Below, piece by piece: positions 15,441 to 15,683 of a stretch of DNA of 64,000 bases; position 1 is the stretch's first letter, and every line of letters begins with the position of its first letter. The stretch covers positions 32,079 to 96,078 of the forward strand of contig JAXDLN010000036.1 in the NCBI GenBank assembly GCA_034666565.1, in the 5' to 3' direction. Made by a program: the position numbers and the translations under genes. The DNA comes from Chloroflexota bacterium (GTDB lineage: Bacteria > Chloroflexota > Dormibacteria > CF-121). The notes beneath the pieces are model-generated. The model was given only the letters and a program-made list of their open reading frames with translations, searched no databases and had not been told where the DNA came from.

Positions 15441-15683
15441 TCAGTGGCAGTGGAACTTGTGGCCGTGCAGGACCGCGGTGGTGCCGTCGGGACAGGTATA
15501 GGCACTCGTCGCTCCCGCATCACCGGGATTGGCCACAGCTTCCTCGATGTCCTGGAACGTCAGGAACAGCTGGTTCCCGGTCAGCGTGATGGTGACGATC
15601 GCCACGCACGCGACCAGGACGAGGATGAGCGCAAACTCGACCATCCCTTGGCCTCGACGTCCCGTTCGGCTGCGTTTGATCAT
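15441..15683 (-). CDS. Flp/TadE-like prepilin paralog with the same C-terminal Cys motif
   Basis: MIKRSRTGRRGQG|MVEFALILVLVACVAIVTITL (class-III signal with VEF variant). C-terminus ...TCPDGTTAVLHGHKFHCH parallels SCPSGQTLQLLGHKWKCK of the 8268 gene. An alternative start at 15740 (MDAFID...) would add 19 aa. Confidence 0.6.
   Translation of the reverse strand: MIKRSRTGRRGQGMVEFALILVLVACVAIVTITLTGNQLFLTFQDIEEAVANPGDAGATSAYTCPDGTTAVLHGHKFHCH

Follow-up and report, generated by a model that had tools for sequence, protein, structure and literature searches.

Within a 64,000-nucleotide stretch of the genome of a Chloroflexota bacterium (GTDB lineage Bacteria; Chloroflexota; Dormibacteria; CF-121; contig JAXDLN010000036.1 of assembly GCA_034666565.1), hereafter called the window, an open reading frame (ORF) on the minus strand at 15441-15683, stop codon included, codes for a small protein that we call FlpA. 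The ORF begins with ATG, ends with TGA and specifies 80 residues (MIKRSRTGRRGQGMVEFALILVLVACVAIVTITLTGNQLFLTFQDIEEAVANPGDAGATSAYTCPDGTTAVLHGHKFHCH). FlpA is a real, conserved small gene under selection in uncultured soil Candidatus Dormibacterota. We propose that it encodes a working prepilin of the Flp type (Tad, type IVc) that would present an exposed, Cys-closed hairpin as an adhesive or ligand-binding surface, a reading to which we assign a probability of roughly 0.6. A 91-residue paralog, FlpB, is encoded on the plus strand at 8268-8543 and shares the C-terminal motif of FlpA. The two genes lie 6.9 kb apart on opposite strands. An initial annotation, made from the letters and the ORFs of the window, had placed both genes correctly, had quoted the sequence of FlpA as we find it and had rightly located FlpA between a tRNA-Ala (15342-15417) and a major facilitator superfamily (MFS) transporter gene (15802-17061).

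Several searches relate FlpA to the Flp pilins. The Pfam model Flp_Fap matched residues 12-50 of the protein (E=2e-4, 21.5 bits); FlpB had no Flp_Fap match in the same scan, and an NCBIfam scan returned no Flp model. In an alignment of 86 sequences that represents both paralog families (FlpA-type and FlpB-type), Flp_Fap was detected at E≤0.01 in 53 members, the best with E=9e-8. A profile of the family aligned over 38 residues with the Caulobacter Tad pilins solved by cryo-electron microscopy (8u2b_A, E=2e-4; 8u1k_A, E=4e-4), and it also matched 8,970 proteins of the Flp superfamily at E≤1e-3 among 1.84 billion representatives. Moreover, many relatives of FlpA have a precomputed match to PF04964 and bear the NCBI name 'Flp family type IVb pilin'. 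As judged from their sequences, FlpA and FlpB belong to the Flp/Tad (type IVc) prepilin superfamily.

FlpA also has the size and the processing motif of a short prepilin. With 80 residues and an 11-residue basic leader, it falls within the range of about 50-90 residues, and the motif G|xxxxE[YF] is present as G11|QGMVE16-F17, so that Gly stands at position -1, Glu at +5 and an aromatic residue at +6, ahead of a hydrophobic stretch. Across the 86 sequences from both families G11, Q12 and E16 never vary, whereas position 13 is occupied by Gly, Ser or Ala. In the profile alignment, E16 of FlpA falls on Glu5 of mature Caulobacter PilA. Because of this alignment and the three invariant residues, cleavage is predicted at RRG|QGMVEF, between G11 and Q12. 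The initial annotation had recognised a class III type of leader but had set the cut at RRGQG|MVEF, after the variable G13, which is two residues off. The predicted basic leader would comprise M1-G11 (MIKRSRTGRRG; 15651-15683, minus strand), and the mature protein would open with a predicted α-helix from Q12 to A51 (15531-15650, minus strand), the hydrophobic pilin core with Glu at +5, as suggested by AlphaFold2 and by the Flp_Fap match. The invariance of G11, Q12 and E16 would be hard to explain for a plain membrane anchor. Upstream, a GTG in the same frame (15740) is an improbable start codon for FlpA; relatives start at the aligned Met, and the translation that precedes it is not conserved. 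In many public gene calls, FlpA orthologs (P0027, P0034, P0042-44, P0051, P0054 and others) appear as 67-residue forms that start at the internal Met14. These starts are a systematic misannotation, by which the leader and the predicted Gly(-1) cleavage site are lost.

Other family assignments fared less well. FlpA had been described as TadE/Flp-like, and the Flp half of that description stands, whereas the TadE half does not. The TadE pseudopilin model (PF07811) covered 15 residues of FlpA with E=0.091 and 13.3 bits, below its cutoff of 22.9 bits, and reached E≤0.01 in only 4 of the 86 relatives. TadE-type pseudopilins are roughly 150-200 residues long, and FlpA has just 80. An NCBI record in which one FlpB relative is named 'TadE family protein' looks like a loose label. 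A type IVa pilin was also rejected, as FlpA has no globular domain, Gln at +1 and an unbroken, proline-free helix over residues 9-51. Finally, the tail drew a weak 'MiiA motif' match from NCBIfam (E=0.11, 12 bits, 3 of 86 members), which is due to chance; the literature on MiiA turned up nothing of relevance.

In a search of 5.8 billion proteins we found homologues of FlpA in at least 174 clusters (65-93% identity); FlpB has 158 homologue clusters. The initial annotation had suggested such a search for further members in relatives. The FlpA clusters originate almost entirely from soil metagenomes. Among the species-representative genomes searched, the FlpA gene occurs in 25 loci, labelled Candidatus Dormiibacterota or 'Chloroflexi bacterium CF_n' soil metagenome-assembled genomes (MAGs), a few with other NCBI labels. 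When the window was compared at the codon level with 27 orthologous loci, at synonymous divergences that reach saturation, the ratio of nonsynonymous to synonymous divergence (dN/dS) of the FlpA frame was 0.05-0.30, which speaks for a gene rather than antisense noise. All of the 28 distinct orthologous sequences (the window plus the 27 loci) have 69 codons from the processing-site Gly to the last Cys. In comparisons of all pairs of these sequences, the proportion of nonsynonymous differences (pN) was 0.067 in the tail, 0.20 in the N-terminal helix and 0.24 in the middle of the protein, at proportions of synonymous differences (pS) of 0.47-0.60 (0.57 in the tail). The tail is thus the most constrained segment of FlpA.

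This tail is a 16-residue loop bracketed by C64 and C79 in FlpA (CPDGTTAVLHGHKFHC; 15447-15494, minus strand), and in FlpB its core is CPSGQTLQLLGHKWKC, at 8490-8537. Both follow the pattern C-P-x-G-x-T-x-x-L-x-G-H-K-aromatic-x-C, and in a six-frame motif scan of the 64 kb exactly two genes, FlpA and FlpB, were found to carry it. Aligned without gaps, the 18-residue tails of the two proteins have nine identities and a BLOSUM62 score of 52, and neither value was attained in any of 200,000 shuffles; the similarity of the tails noted in the initial annotation withstood this control. In 120 FlpA-type and 120 FlpB-type sequences the core takes the form C-[P/A/Q]-x-G-x-[T/S]-x-x-L-x-G-H-K-[Y/F/W]-x-C. 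The FlpA-type tail, CPDGTTAVLHGHKYHC[H/Q], is rich in His and has C64, G74, H75, K76 and C79 as invariant residues; the FlpB-type tail, CP-x-GQTLQL-x-GHKWKC[K/R], is basic and preceded by a Ser/Thr/Pro-rich linker, which is longer in FlpB than in FlpA. In a divergent FlpB-type subgroup the tail is C-x-D-G-T-x-A-x-[F/W/L]-R-H-[G/N]-K-[W/Y/F]-R-C, with His and Gly exchanged, and the one member of the subgroup that could be located (P0252, in locus L030) is an ortholog of FlpB. Over all variants together, only the Cys pair and the Lys never change, with one Gly almost as constant. The computed isoelectric point (pI) of the tail is 9.4 for FlpB and 7.1 for FlpA. The pN of the FlpB tail is 0.24, and its variable positions are freer than those of FlpA.

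AlphaFold2, run with the family alignment, predicted a helix over residues 9-51 of FlpA, with means of the predicted local distance difference test (pLDDT) of 82-97 for 10-residue blocks over residues 11-50. In the tail it predicted a β-hairpin, with strands 69-73 and 76-78 joined by a turn at G74-H75 (pLDDT about 64). The same hairpin was predicted independently for the paralog: the model of FlpB has a helix over residues 5-49 and strands 81-84 and 87-90 around a turn at G85-H86, with a pLDDT of about 80-84 in the tail and a mean of 83.7. Residues 52-80 of FlpA are predicted to be non-helical, and in this the protein departs from the all-helical Tad pilins (PMC10710030). As modelled, the non-helical extension with its conserved hairpin is the feature that would make FlpA a variant Flp pilin. 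If the predicted strand register is right, L72, the aromatic residue 77 and C79 would lie on one face as a small core, and H73, the turn residue H75, K76 and H78 (Arg/Lys in FlpB) on the opposite, exposed face.

Both Cys are present in all 222 scorable family members, that is, those that retain the N-terminal processing motif. Among 116 scorable distant Flp representatives, the exposed part has no Cys in 78, two in 28, four in 3 and a single one in 7, a bias toward even numbers that fits disulfides. About one in four of the nearest Flp relatives have looser pairs of Cys at the C-terminus, and C-terminal Cys loops of varied length recur in this branch of Flp pilins. The predicted hairpin of both paralogs is probably closed by a disulfide (Cys64-Cys79 in FlpA). 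Our literature search did not find a paper on a Flp pilin with a disulfide in a Tad pilus.

FlpA and FlpB align by BLASTP over residues 2-79 with 32% identity (E=4e-16) and are thus homologous over their whole length. The initial annotation had held the shared tail to be a conserved functional module rather than the product of a duplication. The conservation is borne out by the low pN relative to pS, but the opposition to duplication fails, as it is the entire proteins that are homologous. For this reason the shared tail is most simply read as inherited through an old duplication of a whole tail-bearing gene and conserved thereafter. A profile of the C-terminal region (about 40 residues in FlpA and 52-58 in FlpB, with the N-terminal hydrophobic segment excluded) retrieved 197 of the 5.8 billion proteins at E≤10. 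The 120 of these that were listed are all members of the two Flp families, 55-101 residues long, and none is a protein of another type. An exhaustive search with the family profile gave about 13 representatives (at 50% identity) that match through the tail. Every named source genome with the tail is a Dormibacterota-type soil MAG, some under other NCBI labels. In these searches the tail appears only on the FlpA and FlpB paralogs of one lineage, with no sign of mobility between protein types.

The order of events is suggested by the divergent locus L030 (GCA_030157205.1). Because this locus has FlpB and its downstream partner in the same synteny and lacks FlpA, FlpB is the older and FlpA the younger copy. 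A 353-residue lipoprotein-like ORF and an inverted tRNA-Ala (L030 9685-10984) occupy the position of FlpA there. The partner of FlpB in the window is a conserved ORF at 8534-8842 (plus strand) whose ATG overlaps the stop of FlpB by 10 nt. It codes for about 102 residues with two hydrophobic, apparently membrane-spanning stretches (...NRQLWKNAIYSIAMITYLCSFLFFGLAIAEV...IDLIVALYFLVQVIFLFVLSGVVERRR...) and has no Pfam or NCBIfam match. The pair is kept in L030, with an overlap of 8 nt, and the ORF is likely to be a co-translated, and may be a dedicated, partner of FlpB. A protein identical to FlpB is encoded on an 866-kb NCBI contig. Two other proteins, P0247 (418 residues) and P0250 (182 residues), look like poly-pilin fusions: the first carries five Flp-like prepilin modules in tandem and the second two, and every module has a G-x-G-x-V-E-Y motif and a hydrophobic helix of its own.

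How FlpA may function can be outlined as follows. The protein would enter the single cytoplasmic membrane by its hydrophobic N-terminal helix, with the basic leader on the cytoplasmic side, and an aspartic prepilin peptidase of the TadV/CpaA type, encoded elsewhere in the genome, would cleave it after Gly11. A Tad-type ATPase and platform, likewise unlinked to the gene, would then polymerise the mature pilin of 69 residues (Gln1...Glu5-Phe6) into a helical filament with the N-terminal helices as its core, as in the Caulobacter Tad pilus. In the latter, the filament surface is formed by the helix's C-terminal end (PMC10710030); in FlpA, about 29 additional non-helical residues would be displayed outside, the 16-residue loop forming a β-hairpin stapled by the Cys64-Cys79 disulfide. 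Each subunit would show a cationic, His-rich knob along the pilus, and the knobs together could make an adhesive or ligand-binding surface. Dormibacteraeota have been placed in a monoderm clade (bioRxiv 10.1101/2021.05.31.446380), and the tail would therefore lie outside the single membrane, a space that we assume to be oxidising. The Flp pilus of Micrococcus luteus needs two separate tad islands and a separately identified candidate prepilin peptidase (PMC4322843), and its dispersed components thus provide a precedent for unlinked Tad parts. Since the tail of FlpA is more conserved than the pilin core, we expect it to have a fixed ligand or partner rather than to be a surface that evolves to escape phages or antagonists. 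A bolder proposal, which we hold to be less likely than not, is that these are the first Tad/Flp pilins in which every subunit has a folded, disulfide-stapled C-terminal mini-domain and that their His/Lys-rich hairpin coats the pilus of an uncultured monoderm soil phylum as a dedicated surface for binding metal ions, minerals or DNA. If true, such a mini-domain would be at odds with the present view of Tad pilins as made of helices only.

Several points weigh against FlpA being a Flp pilin with a Cys-closed hairpin. Its Pfam score of 21.5 bits is below the Flp_Fap gathering cutoff of 32.2 bits, and the fold searches matched nothing informative. The model of its tail is of moderate confidence (pLDDT about 64), and the Cys64-Cys79 disulfide is inferred, not demonstrated. 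Genes for tadA/cpaF, tadB/C or a prepilin peptidase were not found by Pfam among 50 ORFs of the window, nor was Tad machinery detected by Pfam in the 10 kb to its right. A six-frame scan of the window and of loci L001-L029 revealed no Walker A motif of the T2SS-E type. Finally, no T2SS-E ATPase, TadB/C platform or A24 peptidase was found among the genes that flank FlpA or FlpB in 33 related loci from three genomic contexts, examined to a distance of at most 10 kb in either direction and less where the contig is short. The search drew on Pfam for the 50 window ORFs and 10 ORFs of locus L027 and, in six look-ups, on precomputed Pfam matches of the neighbours. FlpA is thus not linked to a tad/cpa locus in the regions examined; the isolation remarked upon in the initial annotation extends, as far as pilus machinery is concerned, to the related loci. 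We also found no literature on pili, Tad or secretion systems in Dormibacterota.

That pilus machinery never adjoins the gene in any of the three contexts would also agree with FlpA being a small single-pass membrane protein, or a released one, that does not polymerise, that has its Flp-like N-terminus only as an anchor or export signal and whose Cys2/His tail (C64, H73, H75, H78, C79, H80) chelates Zn, Cu or Ni outside the membrane. The tail of FlpA has three well-conserved His and two Cys within 17 residues, and the CP-x-G start of the loop together with its H-x-H...HC end resembles metal-binding knuckles. FlpB, however, has a single His in its tail (GHKWKC) and yet shares the Cys pair, the Gly, the Lys and the aromatic residue. 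Because FlpB keeps one His, the shared core of the tail is not a His cluster. In the divergent FlpB-type subgroup, as in the L030 ortholog, the His and Gly are even swapped (R-H-G-K). Moreover, the invariant G(-1), Q(+1) and E(+5) suggest prepilin processing and filament packing, beyond mere anchoring, and exposed Cys outside a monoderm cell are assumed to be prone to oxidation. Metal chelation by an unpolymerised protein, though plausible for FlpA taken by itself, is on balance unlikely in our view.

Less probable still, in our view, is that FlpA is a major or minor subunit of a Tad-type competence pilus whose cationic hairpin binds DNA. In the monoderm Micrococcus luteus, natural transformation depends on Tad/Flp pili (PMC4322843). 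The strongly basic tail of FlpB (pI 9.4) and the Lys76 that is invariant in every tail variant would suit such a role, whereas the tail of FlpA is near neutral (pI 7.1). The window also has comEC (Competence and DUF4131 domains) and comEA (SLBB and HHH_3) at 2131-4955 on the minus strand, 3.3 kb from FlpB. The linkage is weak, as leuS and a tRNA separate the com genes even from FlpB, the nearer of the two pilin genes, and comEA and comEC are frequent in housekeeping neighbourhoods of this kind. Their proximity would matter only if Flp pili serve DNA uptake, as they do in Micrococcus luteus.

The small size of the ORF, its charged N-terminus, the C-terminal Cys pair and the neighbouring MFS transporter are features that could recall the precursor of a ribosomally synthesised and post-translationally modified peptide, or bacteriocin, with an N-terminal leader and a Cys-containing core. 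The Pfam-annotated neighbours in the three contexts, however, include no modification enzyme and no peptidase-containing exporter, the N-terminal half of FlpA is no leader but a hydrophobic helix of 40 residues with homology to Flp pilins, and the locus is a housekeeping synteny conserved across the lineage. On context and homology, a peptide precursor is very improbable, and we reject it. Lastly, although the genome has a GC content of about 66% and abundant long spurious ORFs, such as the 232-residue antisense ORF at 15075-15773 (plus strand), a GC-rich artefact that passes through the tRNA, and although no sigma-70-like promoter or intrinsic terminator was detected, a chance ORF or antisense noise is refuted, to near certainty, by the dN/dS of the frame, the 174 clusters, the constant length of 69 codons and the same motifs being conserved in the paralog family.

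The surroundings of FlpA are those of a housekeeping region. The tRNA-Ala(cgc) at 15342-15417 (plus strand; ARAGORN; Rfam tRNA, 65.9 bits) is convergent with FlpA and lies 23 nt from its stop; it was the sole Rfam match in 15000-16200. The MFS_1 transporter gene (15802-17061, minus strand; Pfam E=7.6e-10) is 118 nt upstream of FlpA on the same strand, a neighbour kept in most related loci. Seven loci with FlpA were scanned for tRNAs, and six of them have tRNA-Ala and FlpA in this same arrangement; the exception, L027, has another context and no tRNA. More broadly, the block MFS-FlpA-tRNA-Ala-FtsH-Lon-redoxin-thiolase-two-hydrophobic-stretch ORF-FlpB-HIT-tRNA-Ala-LeuRS is conserved across most related loci, and the remaining content of the window is likewise housekeeping (ComEC/ComEA, LeuRS, two Lon, ClpX/ClpP, trigger factor, ValRS, Obg and haem synthesis genes). 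The two neighbouring tRNA-Ala genes are poor evidence for an integrated mobile element, since the whole 20-kb block is housekeeping synteny. FlpA-type genes occur in two further contexts, that of L019, L033 and their relatives and that of L027. In L019 (5283-5450), L033 (5283-5450), L022 (about 570-740), L024 and L026, a third Flp gene lies about 80 nt downstream of the FlpA-type gene. It codes for 55 residues (MGYLRTRRGQGLVEYSLI...NISCNVATHQNCP) with a C-x7-C ending. C-terminal Cys loops thus seem to recur among the Flp genes of this lineage.

Additional features of the region were noted. The junction between FtsH and MFS by the tRNA-Ala(cgc) (window 15242-15801) varies between genomes, and in L020 (10232-12822) it is accompanied by a 2.6-kb insert with a 316-residue ORF that has a signal-peptide-like N-terminus and a 434-residue ORF whose Cys/His-rich C-terminus gives it the look of a candidate HNH nuclease. 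Between the two pilin genes, at 10318-10896 (minus strand), an ORF with a lipobox (LLAGC) and a WCGPC motif looks like a lipoprotein-like thiol:disulfide oxidoreductase of the TlpA/ResA type; judging by these motifs, its product could handle cysteines outside the membrane. The segment 30624-36183 (minus strand) contains a DUF11 repeat ORF with a lipoprotein-signal-like N-terminus, a gene for a membrane-anchored double zinc-ribbon protein and two Ala/Leu-rich, hydrophobic and apparently polytopic ORFs of 579 and 520 residues with no Pfam match; these two lie in a stretch of 70-72% GC with a strong AT skew. Genes for proteostasis (two Lon, FtsH, ClpX, ClpP and trigger factor) are unusually dense in the window, and the two Lon paralogs, at 10899-13286 and 38958-41396 (both minus strand), are full-length.

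The proposed Flp-type prepilin with an exposed, Cys-closed hairpin invites comparison with pilins that have disulfides. Type IVa pilins, such as PilA of Pseudomonas aeruginosa, have a C-terminal disulfide loop, the D-region, which is exposed on the filament and implicated in receptor or surface binding and in assembly. Like the tail of FlpA, this loop comprises roughly a dozen or more residues at the C-terminus; there is, however, no homology in sequence or fold, and type IVa pilins differ by their complete alpha-beta globular domain, their Phe1 and their N-methylation. D-regions are also, as a tendency, rather variable compared with other parts of these pilins, whereas the tail is the most conserved part of FlpA. 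ComGC of Bacillus subtilis, a small competence pseudopilin of a monoderm, has an intramolecular disulfide outside the membrane that depends on BdbDC. The exposed part is stabilised by a disulfide in ComGC, as it is predicted to be in FlpA, but ComGC is of the Com/T4a-like branch, its processing motif is not that of FlpA, it has an operon of its own (comG), and no homology was detected. The likeness to the type IVa D-region and to the ComGC disulfide is one of analogy, not of homology.

Two further systems offer parallels. In Geobacter sulfurreducens, a split pilin is formed by PilA-N and PilA-C, a short helical pilin and a separately encoded partner (PMC10710030). FlpB is, in a similar way, probably coupled in translation to the ORF with two hydrophobic stretches; this partner, however, looks like a small membrane protein, whereas that of Geobacter is a globular domain, and FlpA has no partner. 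We take the resemblance as only a lead. The Flp pilus of Micrococcus luteus is, like the one proposed here, that of a monoderm with dispersed components (PMC4322843), but its function and assembly were shown by experiment, whereas the assembly of FlpA is a proposal.

The nearest known systems are the Flp/Tad major pilins themselves. Like PilA of Caulobacter crescentus (8U2B, 8U1K), Flp1 of Aggregatibacter and the members of PF04964, FlpA is a short prepilin whose leader is basic and in which Gly is found at -1, Glu at +5 and an aromatic residue at +6, and like them it has a continuous hydrophobic helix without Pro22. Its identification as a Flp pilin is not new, as close relatives (65-93% identical) are annotated automatically in this way; FlpA is a modest variant and not a new system. 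Our analysis adds the tail motif and its confinement to soil MAGs of the Dormibacterota type, as well as the history of the paralogs and the corrected cleavage site. The corrected start and cleavage annotation is of modest practical value, as is a short motif that can be used for searching, synthesis and testing. If the proposal is right, FlpA would offer a first handle on the surface structures of Dormibacterota, an uncultured soil phylum. Tad pilins have been described as minimal type IV filaments, bare helices of 40-60 residues with no C-terminal domain (PMC10710030). The mature proteins predicted here are longer (69 residues in FlpA and 82 in FlpB); about 29 residues form a non-helical extension, at the end of which stands the Cys-bracketed hairpin, and the FlpA gene, unlike those of the major pilins, is unlinked to a tad locus. 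A clade of Flp pilins with a Cys-closed hairpin would, if confirmed, indicate that the minimal Tad scaffold is able to carry a small display module.

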